Virus record (IMG/VR): IMGVR_UViG_3300027608_000010
Reading direction: 5' to 3' (one strand)
Source of the DNA: a virus
Lineage: Duplodnaviria > Caudoviricetes
Length of the DNA stretch: 64,000 bases
Positions within the stretch are counted from its first letter, which is position 1; every line of letters begins with the position of its first letter. Under the pieces are notes generated by a model. That model had not been told where the DNA came from and did not search any database. It was given only the letters and a program-made list of their open reading frames with translations. Positions 40,771-50,168 of the stretch are shown here, piece by piece. The position numbers were made by a program, and so were the translations under genes.

Positions 40771-41670
40771 TTATTCTTCGTACATTGTGGAACTAGAACT
40801 TTGTCTAGACCACGATGGATTGAGACCATTGATTTCTAAAATGTCATCCCGTATGTTTTGATTACGCTTTTCGGTGTTCAGTACACGACAAAAGCTATTA
40901 GTTATAGCGGCTGTGTAGTAAGCGAATGGGTTTGCACTTTTGGCTTCATTAAATCTTAATCCAACATATGTAAGTTGAAGAATGGCTGAGTTACGCATTT
41001 CATCATTGTATGTATAACCACGCCAATTGAATTTCATAGCATATTTTTCACACATCATAATGTACATGCGGGCAAGTTTGTTTGTGATGTTACCTTGATC
41101 TTTACCAAACTCACCGTTTACTAGATCACCTTTCCAATGACTCTTACCTATACATTGAAATGTATTTGTCTTGTCAATGCGGAAGTGTTGGAAGGGAGGG
41201 AAGTTAACTTTGACATGAACCATATCATCAATTTCTGCTTTAGTAACTATATCTTCTAGTTCGGCAAATAATTCATCGGTTTCATCTTCAAAATCTAAAA
41301 TGTCTTTGGCTGATTTCTTCTTATCTGATTTTCTGGGTTGCTTGGGTGCAACCGGAACATGATCCCAAGTCATCACACGATATACTAAATCAGTGATTGG
41401 AATGCTTGTTGGGTCAGTAGTACCTTTCCCTAGTTCTTGTTCTAAATCTATTCGTATTGCCCTAGTTTCACGGGCCAGTTGAACATTCTCTGGTTTCAAT
41501 GCATATTCTAAACTTTTTTCAATAGACTCTAAGGGCATATCAACGATGAAATCGTATCTATGATCCTCAGGGGTTAAGAATGTACAATATGAGTTTTTAC
41601 TTGAATGAATCTCTTTTAAAATATCCTTGTTATTCAGATAATTTACAGGTTTTTTGACAGCTATAGACAT
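40771..41670 (-). CDS. gp55: Late-transcription sigma factor (T4 gp55-like)
   Basis: 299 aa. NYLNNKDILKEI, NWRGYTYNDEM, RFNEAKSANPFAYYT...NSF.R. Confidence 0.9.
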   Translation of the reverse strand: MSIAVKKPVNYLNNKDILKEIHSSKNSYCTFLTPEDHRYDFIVDMPLESIEKSLEYALKPENVQLARETRAIRIDLEQELGKGTTDPTSIPITDLVYRVMTWDHVPVAPKQPRKSDKKKSAKDILDFEDETDELFAELEDIVTKAEIDDMVHVKVNFPPFQHFRIDKTNTFQCIGKSHWKGDLVNGEFGKDQGNITNKLARMYIMMCEKYAMKFNWRGYTYNDEMRNSAILQLTYVGLRFNEAKSANPFAYYTAAITNSFCRVLNTEKRNQNIRDDILEINGLNPSWSRQSSSSTMYEE

Positions 41671-41695: not shown

Positions 41696-41724
41696 ATTGT
41701 AACACATTAGTTGCAGAAATGCAA
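41696..41724 (-). promoter_or_regulatory. Sigma70-type promoter TTGCAT-N17-TACAAT with extended -10 TG
   Basis: Upstream of gp55; GGAGA RBS follows. Confidence 0.65.
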
Positions 41725-41767
41725 CAGTTTGATAGTGGAAAAGGTAAAAATACCACTTTTTAATAGC

Positions 41768-41775
41768 GATAAATA
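41768..41775 (+). promoter_or_regulatory. Putative late promoter GATAAATA heading the baseplate operon
   Basis: Upstream of 41796 with AAGG RBS. Confidence 0.65.
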
Positions 41776-41795
41776 TATTTAGTAAAGGTACATAT

Positions 41796-42008
41796 ATGAA
41801 AGCAAACGAAGCAGCCGATGCATGGTTGAAAGTACAACATGACGCCGACACCTTGCGGTCTATTCAGTTCGCCAAACAGCAGGCGGCAAAAGGTGCTCTC
41901 AACGGGTTAGATACTCCTAGACTTAAAGATCCTCTTTTTGATTTTGTTGCCGGTGTGGGAATATACATACCTAAAATTACTACATTGAAACAAGTGTTAG
42001 GATTATAA
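41796..42008 (+). CDS. Chimeric 70-aa ORF whose last 29 aa are identical to the gp53-like C-terminus
   Basis: RLKDPLFDFVAGVGIYIPKITTLKQVLGL is shared with 43428-43727. Confidence 0.65.
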   Translation: MKANEAADAWLKVQHDADTLRSIQFAKQQAAKGALNGLDTPRLKDPLFDFVAGVGIYIPKITTLKQVLGL

Positions 42009-42012
42009 GATG
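41918..42012 (+). repeat. 95-bp direct repeat, copy 1 (81 bp exact, 2 synonymous mismatches)
   Basis: Matches 43637-43731 at an offset of 1719 bp; both copies end TTATAAGATG (stop plus next start). Confidence 0.95.
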
Positions 42013-43428
42013 TCCACACTTTATCAACTCGGTTTTGAAGGAGAGGAGCTTAGACGACAGTTAGAAAAAGTCAACGGAGACCGCAACGATGCCGTAAACT
42101 ATCTCAGTAAACTTGAGGATGAGAATCCGCAAAGGCCGGAACGTATAGCCTTAATACAGAAAGAACTGGAAAGAACTAATGCCCTAGAAGAAGTACTACT
42201 GGCAAAAATTACTGACTGGACTCAAAGATGGAGAGAAGCACAAATCAAAAGAGCCGCATCCGACGAGGCTAAAGAACAAGCTGACCAAGCTAAAAAGACA
42301 GCTACTCTTACACCTGAAGAAACTGCCGCACTACCGGAAAAGCAAGTTTCAAATGTACAACCAACAGGATCAAACTCGGCTCAGGAAACTCTGCCCATTA
42401 TTGGGCAGAATGGCGCAGCTACATTCATAAAAGGACAACCCGAAACCGATGCTGCGACAAATAATATTCCAAATCCCACGACAGCACCGACGGCGGTTGG
42501 TCCGGAAGACCCTGCGGCATTTAAAAATGCAACTAATAACAGTGTCCTCGCTGCTATTAAACCAGCAGACGATGATTTAAACAATAGAATTTTTGCAAGA
42601 AGTCCGGGCGATGAAATGAGCAATGCGGCAGCTGAGGCAGCAAAACCACCACTTGATTGGCGAGTTAAACTTGAACTAGCTAGCAAATCAGATTGGGCTA
42701 CAACTTGGTTTGAAAGTGACGATGCAAAAATTCTAAAACCTTTATCAGAAACTAAAGGGGTTGTATTTCCCTACACACCAACTATTCAAATGGGGTATAA
42801 GGCTCAATATGATTCTACTGACATTACCCATAGCAATTATAAATTGAGTTTTTATAAAAATAGTTATGTAGATGATATTTCAATTTCTGCGGTGTTTACC
42901 GCCCAAGATACAGTAGAAGCTAATTATTTGTTAGCAACAATGCATTTTTTCAAAACAGTTACTAAGATGTTTTACGGGAAAGATACATATCCTATTGCAG
43001 GTACTCCCCCACCATTGTTATTTTTAACTGGATATGGTAAATATCAATTTGATCATCTTCCATTAGTGCTTACTAGTTTTACTTTTACTCTTCCCGATGA
43101 TGTTGATTATATCAGAACAAATACTGATAAGACTTGGTCCGGAACAACAATTGGTATACAAGAATCCAATACTCCGGCGTCGCCAAAACCCAAATCCCCA
43201 GTAAGAGATTGGTTAAATAAAACATTAAGATTGACTAATAACAATTTAGTACCCGGCGGCGAAAAAGTAAAACCGGTTTTTACTAGTATGAATCTTAATA
43301 ACAATGACTCTACTTATGTACCTACTAAAATTTCATTCTCATTGACATTAAAACCTATTGTTACTCGCGGTAATATTAGCAAAAACTATTCAACGCAAGG
43401 ATATGCACAAAAAGGAGGGTATTGGTAA
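42010..43428 (+). CDS. Baseplate/tail-tube initiator-like protein (gp48/gp54-like) with N-terminal coiled-coil extension
   Basis: 472 aa. DWRVKL, GVVFPYTPTI, FTAQD..EANYLLA..HFFKTVTKMFYG, PPPLLFLTGYG motifs; located before gp53. Confidence 0.6.
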   Translation: MSTLYQLGFEGEELRRQLEKVNGDRNDAVNYLSKLEDENPQRPERIALIQKELERTNALEEVLLAKITDWTQRWREAQIKRAASDEAKEQADQAKKTATLTPEETAALPEKQVSNVQPTGSNSAQETLPIIGQNGAATFIKGQPETDAATNNIPNPTTAPTAVGPEDPAAFKNATNNSVLAAIKPADDDLNNRIFARSPGDEMSNAAAEAAKPPLDWRVKLELASKSDWATTWFESDDAKILKPLSETKGVVFPYTPTIQMGYKAQYDSTDITHSNYKLSFYKNSYVDDISISAVFTAQDTVEANYLLATMHFFKTVTKMFYGKDTYPIAGTPPPLLFLTGYGKYQFDHLPLVLTSFTFTLPDDVDYIRTNTDKTWSGTTIGIQESNTPASPKPKSPVRDWLNKTLRLTNNNLVPGGEKVKPVFTSMNLNNNDSTYVPTKISFSLTLKPIVTRGNISKNYSTQGYAQKGGYW

Positions 43429-43727
43429 TGAGTTTTCCTAAAACAAGTCCATATTATCTTTCCTCAGTTTTCAATAATCAATTTTTAGATGTCATGGTAA
43501 ATAGACCTATCCCAATGATTGAGACAGATGAATATTGGGAAATAACACAAACATATAGTTTAAGACCTGACCTACTAGCGTATGACTTATACAATGAAAG
43601 TACGTTATGGTGGGTCTTTGCACAACGCAATCCTAATAGACTTAAAGATCCTCTTTTTGATTTTGTTGCCGGTGTGGGAATATACATACCTAAAATTACT
43701 ACATTGAAACAAGTGTTGGGGTTATAA
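43428..43727 (+). CDS. gp53: Baseplate wedge protein, LysM-like (T4 gp53-like)
   Basis: ATG at 43428 (TAATG overlap, AAGGAGG RBS). RPDLLAYDLYNESTLWWVFAQRN motif. Confidence 0.85.
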   Translation: MSFPKTSPYYLSSVFNNQFLDVMVNRPIPMIETDEYWEITQTYSLRPDLLAYDLYNESTLWWVFAQRNPNRLKDPLFDFVAGVGIYIPKITTLKQVLGL

Positions 43728-43731
43728 GATG
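43637..43731 (+). repeat. 95-bp direct repeat, copy 2
   Basis: See copy 1 at 41918-42012. Confidence 0.95.
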
Positions 43732-46662
43732 GCAGGCACTAAAGCTGAAATTGACGCTCTCAAAAGAGAACGAGAAGCCAATAACAAAATAGCCGACGCG
43801 GCTTGGCAAGAGTATCTTCAAAAAGTTAATAAAGAATTTGCGGTTGAGCTTACTAAAAATTCTGCTGATAACAATGCAATAAACGCATCAAAATCTACTC
43901 TTAGCGAAGCTGAATATATTCAAAAAAAGATAGAGATTCAAAAAACTAATATAGATATATCTGAAAGAGCTATTACTGACATTACTAATATATACAACAA
44001 AATAGCTGTAACTTCGGGGTCACCTAGAGGTGATTATGTATCAGACTATCAGACTAAAATGAGGCAACAGCTAACAGGTCTGCAAGTATTAATTGCTGAT
44101 GCCAAATACGATATAACAGCTTTTGAAACAAAACTAAATGCCTTAACCGGAAAACAATCTGCGACCGAAGAAGAAGCCGCAAAGGCAAAAGCTGCGGAAG
44201 AAGCTACAAAAACCCCAATAGTTGGCAACACAACAGACCCTGCAAAAGCATCATCTGAGGTAGCCGATGATGAACAAGGAGAAAAAAAAGAAAAAAAAGA
44301 TGCTGTCTATGGGCTACGGACAAGTGAAATTAACTCTGCCCCAGCCCAATCCGAACCTATAAAAGTAAATGTTACTGGTTTTATTCCCATTAGTGATATA
44401 GCATCTGATAAAACTCCCGGAGCAAGAGATTTTAATCCACTATCACTATACAGTAGCTATACCTATAATCTAACATTGAGTTTAGTAACTCCTACTATCT
44501 ATAATAGATTTATTAATGGAGAAATTAATGCAGTTGACGAAGCACCTATCATTGTTAGAAGTGGCGGAACAAGTCAAAAAAGAGCAGATGGGTTTGAGTT
44601 AGATTTTTATATTGACGATTTAGAACTTGAAACTTTAACTAATTCTAAAGAAACTCTAATTTCAACTAATACAATGAAGTTTAAATTTAAAGTTTATGAA
44701 CCATATGGTTTTAGTTTTCCACATAAATTATCAGAACTACGTAACAATTCAGCAAGCCGCACCCCGGATTCTATTCGAGGTAACTATTTTTTAACAATAC
44801 GTTTTTATGGATACACTGACCCCGCTCTGGACGAGGACAGAACACCACATCCAATTGCTCAAAAATCACCACACGAAAGAACTTTTTGCATATACATTAC
44901 TACTGTTGGTTATAAATTAGAACAGGGTTTAGTAGTATATGATATTACCGCAGTTCCTGCAGGAGAACTAGTTGCATTGGGTAACTATGGTGTTATCACT
45001 TCAAATAAAAGTTTTCAAGGAAAAACAGTAGGTGAACTTCTCTTAGGAGAAAACCCTGATCCATCTGTTAAGAGTGTAGTTGATGTTTTGAATAATGACG
45101 AAAAACGCCGCCTTGATAATAAGGAAATTGAAGTTGCAAACGTTTATAAAATAGAAATATGGGACGATGATATATTAAATGCGCCAATGGTAAACAAGAA
45201 GGATCTTTCAGCACAGAAAACACCATTAACAACTATTGTTACTCCAAACCAAGTAAATGCAAGAACTGAATATCGAATGAATTATGCTGAAAAAGGTCTT
45301 GTTAATTATGATATAAGAATAGTTAGCAATTCCGCCGGTGAACCAATAATTAATATAATTGATACTATTATTTCTCAGAGTGATTTTGTTAGAAGTAAAT
45401 TAAGTTCTGTTACAAAGGAAGACCCAATAAACACTGAACCTGTTGATAACGGATCAAGTGATTTAATACGTTGGTATAATATTACTCCAAAAATTAAATT
45501 TTTAGCAACTGGTTCAGGACCTGAAGGTAAAGATATTAAACGTAATAACTTTGCGTATGAAATTACATACATCATTCAATTATATAAAGTACCTTTTCTT
45601 AGAACAATTTATTCAAATGCTTTAGAAAAATATTACGGGCCTTATAAACGGTATCAATATTGGTATACCGGCCAAAACACAGAAGTATTATCATTTGATG
45701 TGAGTTATAATTTTACCTACCAATTAGAAAACTCTAATTCTTCTTCTGCAAAAACACAAACATCAAGTAACATAGGTGAAATTCCGATAGCAACTGTTGG
45801 CGCCGCTGGTGCTAGAAACGCTGGTAAAGAAATTGGGACAAATGAAGAAGTTAATAGTATCCGTTCTTGGTTATACAGTCCGGGTGAATTAGTGAAATAT
45901 AATTTGTCAATTTTGGGTGATCCTGATTACTTAATGCCGGCCTTTAATGGAACAATAGTGAAACAATTGAATAGATGGTATGGAGACGATTATGCAATTA
46001 ATCCAGGTGTGGGCCAAGTTTTTATTGAGATTGATTTTAAGCAAGCTGAGGACTATGATGAAAAAACAGGACTGCTTAAAACTGATGATAGAATATTATT
46101 CATGGATTATCCTAAAAGTATGAACCCAAAACCAAAAGGTTTTGTGTTCATGGTAAATAAAGTTATTAGTTCTTTTAGTAGGGGTAAATTTGTACAACGA
46201 CTTACCGGAGGACTACCTAATTTTTCAGCAGCAACTGAAAAAAACCTAAATTCAACTTCAGTTTCAGATCCAGGTAGAAGTACAGGATATGATTCTTTAG
46301 GTACTAATAATAGAGTTGCACAATTTGGTGTTAGTGAACAAATCAATTCGCCACCGGTCGATGGTAACATGCCAGGGGTGTTAGGTACTAATAGAGTTGC
46401 ACAATTCGGTGTTGATAATCAAATCAGTTCGCCACCGATGGTAAATCAAACAGCGCAAGCCAGTGACAATGATGATAATAGCGGTAGTACTGCTAGTAAC
46501 AACAATAATACAAATTCACAATCAGATGAAGGCGGCAGAGAACCTGTGTATACAGAATCCGTAGCTTTTAATAAAGGAAAAGTGCCAATCAGCGGCAGAA
46601 AACCTGTGTATACAGAATCCGTAGCTTTTGGTCAACGAAATGTAATATCAAATAATGTATAA
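43729..46662 (+). CDS. Baseplate hub-like protein (gp27-like) with variable N- and C-terminal extensions
   Basis: 977 aa. NPLSLYSSYTYNLTL, FYIDDLELET, KRYQYWYTGQNTEV, LSILGDPDYL; located between gp53 and gp5. Confidence 0.6.
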   Translation: MAGTKAEIDALKREREANNKIADAAWQEYLQKVNKEFAVELTKNSADNNAINASKSTLSEAEYIQKKIEIQKTNIDISERAITDITNIYNKIAVTSGSPRGDYVSDYQTKMRQQLTGLQVLIADAKYDITAFETKLNALTGKQSATEEEAAKAKAAEEATKTPIVGNTTDPAKASSEVADDEQGEKKEKKDAVYGLRTSEINSAPAQSEPIKVNVTGFIPISDIASDKTPGARDFNPLSLYSSYTYNLTLSLVTPTIYNRFINGEINAVDEAPIIVRSGGTSQKRADGFELDFYIDDLELETLTNSKETLISTNTMKFKFKVYEPYGFSFPHKLSELRNNSASRTPDSIRGNYFLTIRFYGYTDPALDEDRTPHPIAQKSPHERTFCIYITTVGYKLEQGLVVYDITAVPAGELVALGNYGVITSNKSFQGKTVGELLLGENPDPSVKSVVDVLNNDEKRRLDNKEIEVANVYKIEIWDDDILNAPMVNKKDLSAQKTPLTTIVTPNQVNARTEYRMNYAEKGLVNYDIRIVSNSAGEPIINIIDTIISQSDFVRSKLSSVTKEDPINTEPVDNGSSDLIRWYNITPKIKFLATGSGPEGKDIKRNNFAYEITYIIQLYKVPFLRTIYSNALEKYYGPYKRYQYWYTGQNTEVLSFDVSYNFTYQLENSNSSSAKTQTSSNIGEIPIATVGAAGARNAGKEIGTNEEVNSIRSWLYSPGELVKYNLSILGDPDYLMPAFNGTIVKQLNRWYGDDYAINPGVGQVFIEIDFKQAEDYDEKTGLLKTDDRILFMDYPKSMNPKPKGFVFMVNKVISSFSRGKFVQRLTGGLPNFSAATEKNLNSTSVSDPGRSTGYDSLGTNNRVAQFGVSEQINSPPVDGNMPGVLGTNRVAQFGVDNQISSPPMVNQTAQASDNDDNSGSTASNNNNTNSQSDEGGREPVYTESVAFNKGKVPISGRKPVYTESVAFGQRNVISNNV
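46297..46628 (+). repeat. Short in-frame repeats at the hub C-terminus (LGTN(N)RVAQFGV...SPP x2; PVYTESVAF x2)
   Basis: Periods of about 84 bp (46297/46381) and 60 bp (46541/46601, 28 bp exact). Confidence 0.85.
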
Positions 46663-46691: not shown

Positions 46692-49600
46692 ATGTCATGG
46701 AATAGATTTTTTAACGGACCTAGTAAAAATTATAAAGATGATAGAGGCCGAACCAACTTAATTCCTAGCGCCGTCGTCGGTACAGTTAAACATAATATAG
46801 ACCCTAAAAAATCAGGACAAATCAAAGTATACCTTCATAGGTTAGATGCAGGAGATCAAAACAATCCTGATAATTGGACTACGGTAGATTATCTAAGCCC
46901 CTTCTTTGGTACTACACCTAATACAGGTAGTCCTGATAATGAATTCGGTACTTTTAAAGACAATCCACAAAGTTATGGTTTTTGGTTTACTCCTCCTGAT
47001 TTGGGAATTCAAGTAGTTTGTTTGTTTGAAAATGGTGTATCAGATTTTGGATGGTATATAGGTAGTATTCCTAGAACTGGAGTAATGCATATGGTGCCTG
47101 CTATAGGATCATCAGATTCCATTGTGTCAAATGAAGCAGAGGCAAAAAATTACGGTGGTGCTACATTATTGCCTGTAGGTGAGATTAACGATATAAGACC
47201 CAGCAATAGATATGGTACTCAACTAACTTCACACCCAAGACCTGTGCATAGTTATATGGCTGCAAGTTTAAATAATCAAGGATTGATACGTGACCCTGAT
47301 CGAGGAACAATTAGTAGCAGTAGTAGTCGTGAAAGTCCTAGTAAAGTATTTGGTATAAGCACTCCTGGTAGAGCAATATATCAAGGGGGATATTCTGATT
47401 CAACCATACTAGATGCAGTAAAAGATGCTACAATCCCAGAAGATAATTATAAAGTAGTAGGTCGAAGAGCCGGACATACACTTGTAATGGATGATGGAGA
47501 TCTACAAGGCAAAGATCAATTAATGAGATTTCGAACTGCTGCCGGTCACATGATTATGATGAATGATACTATTGGTACTTTATTCATTGTACATGCAAGT
47601 GGTAAAAGTTATATTGAGATGGGCAAAGAAGGCACCATTGATATGTATTCTACTAACAGTGTTAATATACGAACTCAAGGTGATTTGAATCTACATGCTG
47701 ATAATAATATAAACATCAATGCTAAAAACGATTTGAATATTTCTGCTACTAACATTAAGATAGAAAGTTTTCAAGATACTTCTCAATTCACAGGCGGTAC
47801 ATTGCAACAACATACTAAAGGAGATCATACTTTAAAAGTTGACAGTAAAATGTCATTTGAAAGTTCCGGCGATAGTATGATAAAAAGTGGAGGAACTAAT
47901 TACATTAAAGGTGGACCAAATGTAAAATTAAACACAGGTGAAAGTTCACTCTCTCCTCAAGAAGTTAAACCTATTCCGCAAGTTGCACACACTGACACAT
48001 TGTTTGATAAAGAAAAAGGATATCTTGCGGCCCCGGCCAAGTTGCCTAGTATTGTTAGTCGTGCTCCGGCACACAGCCCTTGGGCCGGAGCAAATCAAGG
48101 TGTAAATGTAAAAATTGATTTGACTGCTGACGCTAATTTACCAGAAGCCGCTTCACCAGCCGTCACTGCAACTAACGTTGCCGCAAACGAAAATTCTACT
48201 TCTCCGGTTGCAAGTTCAGCAGTACAATCAACTGTTCCTGATAATGTCACTGAAGAAAACAAAGCATTAGTTTCTCAGATAGCGGTTAATTCACAGACCG
48301 CTGATCAAAAAGTTGGGCTATCGGTAAATCAAGTAGCGGCTATAAAAGAAGCAGATGGAGCAAAAGTTCCCGCTGTTGGACCTTTGGGATTGAATCCACA
48401 TCAACTTGAGGCTGCTGGTTATATTAAACCCGGCACAGCAGATGCTGTGGTCGCCGCAACCACTAGTGGTAAGACTATCGAACAAGCGATGCCTCCAAAT
48501 ATCTTTACTGGTAAAGACGGTATAAATTCAATGAAAGACTTAGTTAATAATACTCCTGCTCAAGTTACAGTTGCAAATAATTTGTTAACTAAGTCAAAAA
48601 CTGCATTAACAACAGCAGGAGTAATCACTGGCAAAGAAGATCCATCACAAGTTAGTGGATTAGTATTAGCAGGCGCAACCCATGGCACACAGGCAACAGC
48701 AGATTTTGTTAAATCTACGGCAGCCGGAACAAATACAAGTCTTCCAAGTAAAATAGGTGCAGCAATAGTTGCCGGCGGAGTAGCAATAGCTTCCAAAATA
48801 GCTTCTAAATTAGGAATTAAAATTCCACCTAACATAAGTGAAAAATTGTCTGGTTCTATAAAAGACATAGTAGGTTCTGGTAACAAAGCGGCTGAAATTC
48901 AAGAAAAAGCTACAGGACCATTAAGTGGAGCAAAAATTCTTGATAATTTAAAAGGTGCGGTATCTTCCGCGTTTGATAAAATTAAGAAAGGCTTCAAGTC
49001 ATTAACTGCGGGCAAACCACAAAATCTAACAACAATCAATGCAAAAAATGATGAAGAAAAAGCAGCCGTAGATGCAGGTGAAACTGCAGCCTTGGATGCA
49101 GGAGCACAGGCTCCCCAGAGCACAGCAGTAAAAGCACCAACATTAAAAGAATCATTATCAAAAGTGGGTTCTAAAATTAAAGCATTCTTTACTCCTAATC
49201 CTAGTGGAACTGCTAATTTAACAGCAGGTAGTGCAACAGCATCAAATCTAGTAGAAGTAAATCATGAAGGGCAATCAATGATTGTTGATAATAATATGCC
49301 TACTAAAGAAAATCCTTATGCTGGATTGTCAGATGAGCAAAGGAAGTCTTTTGGCAACGCTGACCCCACTGATCCGTATATACGTGCTAGATTGGGAGTA
49401 CCACCATTAGTAAGCACAACTGCAACAGCTAGTTCCGGTACAAGTGGTGCATCATTACCCGGAACCGCTGGAATCTCGGGCGTACTAGGATCTATCAAAT
49501 CAAGTATTTCAGCAGGTGCAGATAAAGTGAAGGGTGCTATTGCTTCTCTTAAGACTAAACTTACCGGAGCAAATAAACTTACTGATGTAGCAAACAAAGA

Positions 49601-50168
49601 TTTAGGTCCTGCAGAATCTGCAAAACTTAGCGCATCTTTAAATTCAATGAAAACAGGCGGATCAAGTATTGTTTTACCTACAGTGGCTGTGGGTACAACA
49701 AACACAGCAGTTCAATCTGCCCAATTTGGCGCATTGTTGGGTGATTTGAAAATGCCACCAGGTAATTTAGGTGATGGTATCCCGACAGGGTCATTCTCGG
49801 TTCCAACTGCGGCCCAATCTGCAAACTATGACAAGTTGAAAAAAGAATTAACTGAACTTGATACTAATAAAAAATGGGATTTACAAACAAAATATTTCAA
49901 TTCTAAGAAAAAGAACGGTGAAGAAGCCGCAGAAACAACCACAGCTAAAGAAGAATGGCAAACATGTCTGAAACGAATTGAACAAATCAGAGGTGAAATG
50001 TACACTAATCAAACTGGTAATCCTCCACCAACTCAAGTACCCCCAGCCAATGCACCAATAGATATCAATAAAAACTTGACAGTAGCAGCAGGAATGCAAG
50101 AAGGCGGTCCCGGTCGTCAAGCAATAGAATCAATAGGGGCGTCTTTTAAAGGATCTCTTAACCAATAA
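46692..50168 (+). CDS. gp5: Baseplate spike (T4 gp5/VgrG-like) with long C-terminal extension
   Basis: 1158 aa. OB-fold (SYGFWFTPPDLGIQVVCLF), GHTLVMDDG, beta-helix repeats, then about 740 extra residues. Confidence 0.8.
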   Translation: MSWNRFFNGPSKNYKDDRGRTNLIPSAVVGTVKHNIDPKKSGQIKVYLHRLDAGDQNNPDNWTTVDYLSPFFGTTPNTGSPDNEFGTFKDNPQSYGFWFTPPDLGIQVVCLFENGVSDFGWYIGSIPRTGVMHMVPAIGSSDSIVSNEAEAKNYGGATLLPVGEINDIRPSNRYGTQLTSHPRPVHSYMAASLNNQGLIRDPDRGTISSSSSRESPSKVFGISTPGRAIYQGGYSDSTILDAVKDATIPEDNYKVVGRRAGHTLVMDDGDLQGKDQLMRFRTAAGHMIMMNDTIGTLFIVHASGKSYIEMGKEGTIDMYSTNSVNIRTQGDLNLHADNNININAKNDLNISATNIKIESFQDTSQFTGGTLQQHTKGDHTLKVDSKMSFESSGDSMIKSGGTNYIKGGPNVKLNTGESSLSPQEVKPIPQVAHTDTLFDKEKGYLAAPAKLPSIVSRAPAHSPWAGANQGVNVKIDLTADANLPEAASPAVTATNVAANENSTSPVASSAVQSTVPDNVTEENKALVSQIAVNSQTADQKVGLSVNQVAAIKEADGAKVPAVGPLGLNPHQLEAAGYIKPGTADAVVAATTSGKTIEQAMPPNIFTGKDGINSMKDLVNNTPAQVTVANNLLTKSKTALTTAGVITGKEDPSQVSGLVLAGATHGTQATADFVKSTAAGTNTSLPSKIGAAIVAGGVAIASKIASKLGIKIPPNISEKLSGSIKDIVGSGNKAAEIQEKATGPLSGAKILDNLKGAVSSAFDKIKKGFKSLTAGKPQNLTTINAKNDEEKAAVDAGETAALDAGAQAPQSTAVKAPTLKESLSKVGSKIKAFFTPNPSGTANLTAGSATASNLVEVNHEGQSMIVDNNMPTKENPYAGLSDEQRKSFGNADPTDPYIRARLGVPPLVSTTATASSGTSGASLPGTAGISGVLGSIKSSISAGADKVKGAIASLKTKLTGANKLTDVANKDLGPAESAKLSASLNSMKTGGSSIVLPTVAVGTTNTAVQSAQFGALLGDLKMPPGNLGDGIPTGSFSVPTAAQSANYDKLKKELTELDTNKKWDLQTKYFNSKKKNGEEAAETTTAKEEWQTCLKRIEQIRGEMYTNQTGNPPPTQVPPANAPIDINKNLTVAAGMQEGGPGRQAIESIGASFKGSLNQ

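Follow-up and report, generated by a model that had tools for sequence, protein, structure and literature searches.

Termination-reinitiation at adjacent or overlapping stop and start codons couples genes in the late operons of phages, and both gene-fragment scars of unequal recombination and mosaic exchange of modules occur in tailed phages. The subject of this analysis is a 70-codon open reading frame (ORF) in a 64,000-nucleotide stretch of the IMG/VR virus record IMGVR_UViG_3300027608_000010 (hereafter the window), where it opens the baseplate operon of a freshwater jumbo myovirus that has not been cultured. By comparing sequences we show that in this ORF the 5' end of a tube-initiator gene runs in frame into the 3' end of a gp53-like gene; most likely recombination left it behind as a scar, which has probably been reused as a coupling leader. 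As in the recombination scars of other phages, a 5' fragment is fused to a 3' fragment one unit upstream of the intact unit, with sharp borders at the gene junctions, and, as in mosaic module exchange, sister phages carry unrelated N-terminal modules on fully identical cores. Unlike the usual scars, the frame has stayed open in two distant lineages, stopping 1 nt short of the next start in each, and the window copy is 98% identical to its source. The likeness to termination-reinitiation coupling lies in the UAA-G-AUG at the end of the leader, with an AGGA resembling a Shine-Dalgarno (SD) element 7 nt upstream, an arrangement found likewise at the gp53 junction. In contrast to the usual coupled pairs, the upstream ORF in the window is a fusion of two gene ends and no working gene, and its coupling is one that we infer. 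The features on which the argument turns are the following.

41768-41798, plus strand: promoter, SD and ATG block defined by the alignment of 9 loci, with the late-promoter-like GATAAATAT, an SD-like AAGG (41785-41788) and the ATG at 41796.
41796-42008, plus strand: 70-amino-acid chimeric leader ORF (P0001), codons 1-41 a tube-initiator 5' remnant and codons 42-70 a copy of the gp53 C-terminus.
41918-42012, plus strand: first copy of the repeat, with the last 29 gp53 codons, TAA, G and ATG, and the SD-like AGGA at 41999-42002.
42010-43428, plus strand: tube-initiator-like protein of 472 amino acids (P0002; phrog_12050, E 2.5e-45, residues 232-377).
43428-43727, plus strand: gp53-like, LysM-type baseplate protein of 99 amino acids (P0003), whose start overlaps the preceding stop (TAATG).
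43637-43731, plus strand: second, native copy of the repeat, with gp53 codons 71-99, TAA, G and the ATG of the next gene, and an SD-like GGGG at 43718-43721.
43729-46662, plus strand: virion or baseplate protein of 977 amino acids (P0004; phrog_11190, E 2.3e-8, residues 235-684).

The two parts of the 70-amino-acid product have different sources. Residues 42-70 of P0001 are the gp53 C-terminus, and residues 1-41 are unrelated to gp53. Because the ORF holds only the last 29 gp53 residues, it is no member of the gp53/LysM family: in the structural model these residues (71-99 of gp53) form only a short helix, the last strand and the C-terminal helix, which falls short of a complete LysM domain. 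The origin of residues 1-41 is indicated by where they begin and by what they resemble. New here is that the ORF begins at the conserved late promoter, SD element and ATG that belong to the tube-initiator gene in relatives; the IMG/VR and metagenome-contig scans that supplied these relatives returned only loci with a core identity of 58% or less, and the nearest record, G001, does not cover the locus. In the alignment of 9 loci (A10), the conserved stretch before ATG 41796 comprises the palindrome GTTGCAGAAATGCAAC, followed by AAAGGTAAAAAT, GCGATAAATAT and AGTAAAGG, and the relatives have the start codon of the tube initiator directly after it. The P0103 relatives, too, start right at the conserved ATG. 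The gap from the divergent late sigma factor gene to the ATG is approximately 95-150 nt in approximately 150 loci, versus 340 nt to the tube-initiator ATG of the window.

Residues 1-41 (MKANEAADAWLK...) resemble the N-termini of tube initiators, such as MANNALDEWRK (P0126), MTKEEALAAWNQ (P0043) and MSNQKTADEWKQ (P0084). In end-anchored Smith-Waterman alignments with tube-initiator N-termini they scored 57 with P0126 and 48 with P0043, against a null maximum of 37.9 +/- 4.0, and 0 of 200-300 shuffled queries reached 57. The tube-initiator N-termini of this type read M-x-x-N-x-A-x-D/E-x-W. Smith-Waterman comparison of the same residues with the N-termini of the gene after gp53 gave no signal, and no homologue of residues 1-41 was found by tblastn (162 loci) or by a word search among proteins of 38-2000 amino acids; BLASTP of P0001 against P0043 missed the relation detected by end-anchored Smith-Waterman. 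The start site shared with the relatives' tube initiators, together with the tube-initiator-like residues 1-41, shows that a tube-initiator 5' end was joined to a gp53 3' end.

The palindrome deserves mention in its own right. It is perfect, occupies 41710-41725 (plus strand) in the intergenic region that separates the baseplate operon from the divergently transcribed late-sigma gene, upstream of GATAAATAT, and is kept in most of the 9 aligned loci (the window, L163, L203, L250, L003 and others); it is a candidate operator or RNA hairpin. A scan for sigma-70 promoters and terminators remained at chance level. The long gaps between the sigma gene and the operon in L013, L059 and L142 were considered as further leader ORFs and rejected, the plus-strand ORFs there looking like noise.

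A repeat search of the window returned a direct repeat of 102 nt with 95% identity (41911-42012 versus 43630-43731) at a spacing of 1719 nt. This spacing is exactly one unit of tube initiator plus gp53 (42010-43728), and the repeat has the shared ATG as its right-hand border. Its exact stretch of 81 nt (41918-41998 = 43637-43717) is exceeded by no other exact repeat in the 64-kb window, and within the 95-nt core 93 of the 95 bases match. The two differences, at 41999 and 42002, are each A in the first copy and G in the second; both are synonymous (TTA/TTG for Leu, GGA/GGG for Gly) and both sit in the 4-nt SD-like element 7 nt before the start codons, which reads AGGA in the first copy and GGGG in the second. 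Both copies finish with TAA-G-ATG. The window scan detected neither a third copy of the repeat nor another copy of the 5' part of the mini-ORF, and RNA structure around both junctions was indistinguishable from that of shuffled sequences. If the copies recombined with each other, the tube initiator and most of gp53, both essential genes, would be lost, which should be lethal; amplification driven by the repeat is possible.

The initial annotation of this DNA had described a 95-bp repeat, identical over 81 bp and then differing by two synonymous changes, that supplies the gp53 C-terminus and stop-G-ATG twice and creates a chimeric 70-amino-acid ORF; recounting confirmed the repeat, and the chimera stands, with the tube-initiator-like character of residues 1-41 added to it. 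Its conjecture that MKANEAADAW... is the original N-terminus of the tube initiator is upheld by the relatives' start site and by the alignment scores of 57 and 48. It had also read the synonymous-only divergence as a hint of selection on the mini-protein or on its translational coupling. Both changes are indeed synonymous, but two random substitutions would both be so by chance with a probability (P) of 0.06-0.12, so that the two differences by themselves are not significant and are a weak sign of selection. Because the positions of the SD-like tetramer vary across the family (among distinct gp53 junction loci), the difference between AGGA and GGGG is a hint of tuning, or of where a conversion tract ends, and nothing beyond that.

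The explanation that we favor, and to which we give somewhat better than an even chance, is that the 70-codon ORF is the remnant of a collapsed copy of the tube initiator plus gp53 unit, kept as a translated coupling leader. Unequal exchange at the start codons, probably between two phages with different N-terminal modules, would have put two such units in tandem; co-infection by two phages or a later swap of modules would fit, and the mosaicism of these phages, set out below, makes either plausible. An in-frame internal deletion would then have shrunk the upstream unit to 213 nt. The arrangement in the window is that of a collapsed duplication: one unit length (1719 nt) upstream lies a remnant that begins as the first gene of the unit begins and finishes as its last gene finishes. 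Ribosomes would start at the strong ancestral site, stop at the UAA and restart 1 nt later at the AUG of the tube initiator. The gp53 end would thereby act as an initiation cassette, as the same SD-stop-start junction appears to couple gp53 to its downstream gene across the family: of 156 distinct loci, 151 have the next ATG between -4 and +4 nt from the gp53 stop, and a conserved Gly codon supplies an SD-like GG. The leader has the layout of the first member of a coupled pair, with TAA-G-ATG at 42006-42012 and AGGA at 41999-42002 inside the upstream ORF. The 70-amino-acid peptide could probably be dispensed with. Both translational coupling and gene conversion are deduced here from the DNA, and a literature search for leader ORFs derived from gene remnants found nothing relevant. 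If this explanation holds, the locus is a clear, datable example of essential phage tail genes rebuilt by unequal recombination at gene junctions, in which a leftover two-gene fusion can persist as a translated leader once a new module has been placed downstream of the old start. Specialists are unlikely to think differently because of the repeat itself, a tidy but fairly ordinary piece of phage evolution.

A second leader was found in L163, a locus of a 360-kb IMG/VR phage whose tube initiator, P0061 (L163:4001-5509), carries the same kind of N-terminal module as that of the window (type A). The conserved promoter and ATG are as in the window and are followed by a 20-codon ORF, MANNQTEIRQKSTLTEDSGI, which begins like the MANN-type N-termini and ends with TAA-C-ATG at the type-A start (junction GGGG..TAA-C-ATG). 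On a profile of gp53 C-terminal ends (consensus PKxxTLKxALG[LIF]) the end of this ORF scores 8.4; only 12 ends, those of the sample's true gp53 genes, score higher, and the next best of approximately 1059 ORF ends reaches -1.6. The last 45 nt of the leader match the end of the L163 gp53 gene at 24 of 45 positions, against a null of 12.1 +/- 2.9. Both type-A lineages thus share a three-part layout of old start, gp53-like end and stop-N-ATG, and two further IMG/VR scans for type-A loci returned the L163 group only.

The L163 leader suggests a decayed version of the window leader and an old event. Within their own genomes, the copies are 98% identical in the window and approximately 53% identical over 45 nt in L163, a comparison that assumes a single origin. 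If the two leaders do share their origin, the 98% identity of the window copies would have been maintained by gene conversion from the working gp53 gene, which would also explain why the differences in the copied part are synonymous only; alternatively, that identity would reflect a recent, separate event. In window and L163 alike, the frame that begins at the strong ancestral start has stayed open as far as a stop 1 nt short of the tube-initiator ATG, although their peptides differ. Because the L163 peptide is different and shorter and the stop-N-ATG has been kept, coupling is favored over the peptide as what the leader provides.

Several points weigh against a collapsed tandem unit that became a leader. 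No relative with two complete tandem units was detected, and a count of gp53 C-terminal ends found one per locus in 143 loci. The N-terminal module of the remnant differs from that of the complete gene, and so either two parents or a later module swap is needed. Common descent of the window and L163 leaders rests on short, diverged sequence, and constraint on the initiation region could add to the similarity of the DNA. Finally, the 70-amino-acid protein is invariant on 21 contigs, whereas among 9 full-length variants 3 sites vary within residues 1-41 of the adjacent extension. At the variation rate of the core, approximately 0.8 variable sites would be expected in the 70-amino-acid protein, and its invariance is therefore weak evidence of constraint on the peptide.

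The rival that survives best, unlikely in our judgment, is a single recent ectopic event, by template switching or illegitimate repair, that pasted only approximately 95 nt from the 3' end of the resident gp53 behind an older tube-initiator start and ahead of the type-A gene. A full tandem unit would never have existed, the ORF would be a young neutral scar and the L163 leader would be a separate matter. The 98% identity and sharp borders of the copies, the absence of tandem intermediates from the 143 loci and the restriction of the mini-ORF to one sequence cluster are all as this account would predict. It requires, however, that both junctions were precise, the first in frame and the other exactly at an ATG, and leaves the old start and its 41 codons upstream of a complete gene to be explained separately. 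Nor does it account for the spacing of exactly one gene unit, or for the same three-part layout in L163 with a diverged gp53-like end.

We regard it as rather more doubtful that the 70-amino-acid product is a working mini-gp53, retained by selection, whose C-terminal piece docks on the hub or tube initiator, like the tail of the full-length protein, as a tether, competitor, assembly factor, regulator or minor part of the baseplate. The LysM protein gp16 of the cyanophage A-1(L) has a C-terminal tail that either enters the hub or pairs with the tube initiator (PMC10966104), and docking could therefore be what the copied piece does. All 21 contigs carry the sequence without a variant, the ORF comes first in the late operon with a strong ancestral initiation site, and both differences between the copies are synonymous. 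Against this, most of the LysM fold is missing, the short helix, last strand and C-terminal helix being all that is left; the L163 counterpart has 20 codons and a different peptide, so the peptide has not been conserved over time; residues 1-41 have no homologue as a small protein elsewhere; and the synonymous pattern is weak (the P of 0.06-0.12 given above) and would equally result from conversion by gp53. A more specific form, in which the chimera docks through its gp53 piece and thereby places a short coiled-coil head or regulates the number of docked gp53 tails, strikes us as a long shot. If true, a recombination scar would have given rise to a new baseplate assembly factor that selection has retained.

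The initial annotation had proposed another origin, in which a bare tube-initiator core acquired, in front of it, a copied cassette made up of the 3' end of gp53 and the adjoining N-terminal extension. The repeat does end at the start codon of both extended genes, and the extensions are modular and exchanged between phages, but the extensions themselves make this origin highly improbable. The P0002 extension (42010-42654) consists of a coiled-coil module, a low-complexity linker and a conserved pre-core segment, followed by the tube-fold core (42655-43425). Extensions of this sort are near-universal on the tube initiators of uncultured relatives that lack the repeat, with lengths of approximately 80 to 1084 amino acids in 80 IMG/VR loci and approximately 40-120 amino acids in a marine subgroup. 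The window extension (MSTLYQLGFEGEEL...) aligns from residue 1 with that of P0061, with 48% identity over the first 80 residues, and its pre-core segment is also present in P0040. In a search of 1.84 billion representatives the extension was found only on tube-initiator proteins, and comparison with the N-termini of the gene that follows gp53 brought out no resemblance (P 0.28). The complete tube-initiator gene thus carries what its alignments identify as a native N-terminal module, type A, and since the extension is native to tube initiators and unlike the N-termini after gp53, the cassette origin was rejected. A derivation of the window extension (MSTLYQL...) from a position downstream of gp53 was rejected on the same grounds, namely its occurrence only on tube initiators and its native alignment with P0061.

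An assembly artefact, that is, a chimeric join at a repeated k-mer, is conceivable for a window from a metagenome assembly of an uncultured phage but can practically be dismissed, because the identical 70-amino-acid chimeric product is encoded on 21 contigs from three sources (JGI/IMG, ENA and MetaClust; the longest of 296,737 nt), reads of usual length exceed the 95-nt repeat and L163 has an independent, related layout. An exact search for the chimeric junction gave no match.

The mosaicism on which the collapsed-unit explanation draws is most evident among near relatives, which were compared at the protein level (P0003, P0009, P0012-P0014, P0041 and P0042). In this near population (11 variants, 96-100% identical), the tube-initiator core is almost invariant and the extension varies by substitutions and by insertions and deletions. 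The core and pre-core segment of P0042 are fully identical to those of the window and its N-terminal coiled coil is unrelated, which bears out the suggestion of the initial annotation that N-terminal extensions could be swapped; in P0041 the N-terminal module of the window is kept and the linker is different. The contig with P0042 has the length of those with P0012 and P0035; if they are one contig, gp53 there is only 82% identical, whereas for the beginning of the gene after it the identity is 98-100%, and the N-terminal part of the P0004 extension is 98-100% conserved in the near population as a whole. From these mosaics and from the contrast between gp53 and its neighbor, modules are seen to be exchanged at a fine scale, with apparent borders near the gene junctions.

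The gp53 gene itself is a variable island. At the protein level, P0009 is 87% identical to the gp53 of the window, with all differences in residues 1-60 and residues 61-99 identical; P0012-P0014 differ throughout (81-82%), and the flanking genes are approximately 98-100% identical. Because gp53 varies in this way between near-identical neighbors, crossovers inside gp53 or at its end are suggested.

Extensions are present on both the tube initiator (window 42010-42654) and the next baseplate protein (43729-44430), as seen in loci L003-L257, which derive mostly from freshwater uncultured jumbo phages; they are missing from the cultured PA5oct and Rak2-like relatives, and their sequences are unrelated between phages. 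P0004 has an N-terminal coiled-coil and low-complexity extension of approximately 230 amino acids before its conserved core, and its relatives align from residue approximately 220-236. As the initial annotation had it, the two window extensions share no similarity with each other (BLASTP E 2.2); both stop where the proteins of Pseudomonas phage Paride and Erwinia phage Hallingskeid begin. No published description of such tube-initiator extensions was found in the literature. Their huge length range on the tube initiator and the next baseplate protein, and their exchange between otherwise identical phages, point to a part of the injection machine that evolves rapidly and has gone unstudied, which may matter more than the repeat.

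The gene names used above hold at the level of fold, because the models of the P0002 core and of P0003 match tube-initiator and LysM baseplate chains, respectively; PDB sequence searches with the three proteins gave nothing significant. The core of P0002 (residues 216-472) was modeled with a predicted local distance difference test score (pLDDT) of 73, and its top Foldseek matches (E 5e-5 to 7e-4, probability 1.00, template modeling (TM) score 0.35-0.47) are 9qgl_7A, 6j0n_b, 7b5h_AK, 8kea_P/R, 7aeb_M and 6rao_G, that is, Pvc7, Afp7 and Cis7 together with initiator chains of A-1(L). The model shows the tube beta-barrel plus an added domain of the initiator type. The core therefore folds like the tube initiators Pvc7/Afp7/Cis7, gp18 of A-1(L) and gp48/gp54 of T4, with TM scores of only approximately 0.4, and unlike them the protein adds the 215-amino-acid coiled-coil and low-complexity N-terminal extension.

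P0003 resembles gp53 of T4, gp16 of A-1(L) and gp26 of P1 in its match to phrog_7145 'baseplate wedge subunit' (E 1e-20, residues 6-97), in its LysM-like fold and in its place between the tube initiator and the hub-side genes. It is unlike T4 gp53 in being much smaller, and its score of 18.8 bits with the Pfam gp53 family PF11246 lies under the cut-off of 21, so that it is not a member by the Pfam definition. The model (pLDDT 76) has a LysM-type fold and matches best the P1 baseplate chain 9vzk_d (E 5e-3, TM 0.54), then the A-1(L) chains 8kea_J/K/M and LysM domains, all with modest significance.

The operon is chained by TAAGATG, TAATG and TAAGATG, and two further features frame the genes already listed.

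40771-41670, minus strand: gp55-like late sigma factor, divergent from the baseplate operon (phrog_12791, E 1.8e-69), in the same position as in Paride and Hallingskeid.
46692-50168, plus strand: baseplate hub or tail lysozyme-like protein (phrog_13211, E 1.4e-38).

Upstream of the baseplate operon, the other strand encodes the gp55-like late sigma factor, SbcD and SbcC. The gene order of sigma factor, virion protein, small wedge protein, virion protein and hub/lysozyme is also found in Paride (PA5oct group) and Hallingskeid.

Some further observations concern the coding sequences. At L154:2300-2335, and also in L070, the extension and core of the tube-initiator homologue lie in different frames joined at a run of six A residues (TACAAAAAAGGAAGG), where one A fewer would give an in-frame fusion; a homopolymer assembly error, a frameshift or a split gene would each fit. 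In the 977-amino-acid protein, the C-terminal 150 residues contain two peptide repeats, NRVAQFGV..Q/EI.SPP and EPVYTESVAF, each present twice, and a 29-nt exact DNA repeat at 46541/46601 (window 46541-46629) underlies the first of them. On the minus strand of window 1-26000 there are many diverged families of direct repeats, with 60-80% identity and lengths of up to 296 nt, as well as three exact ones (76, 44 and 40 nt), in apparently paralogous fibre-like genes.

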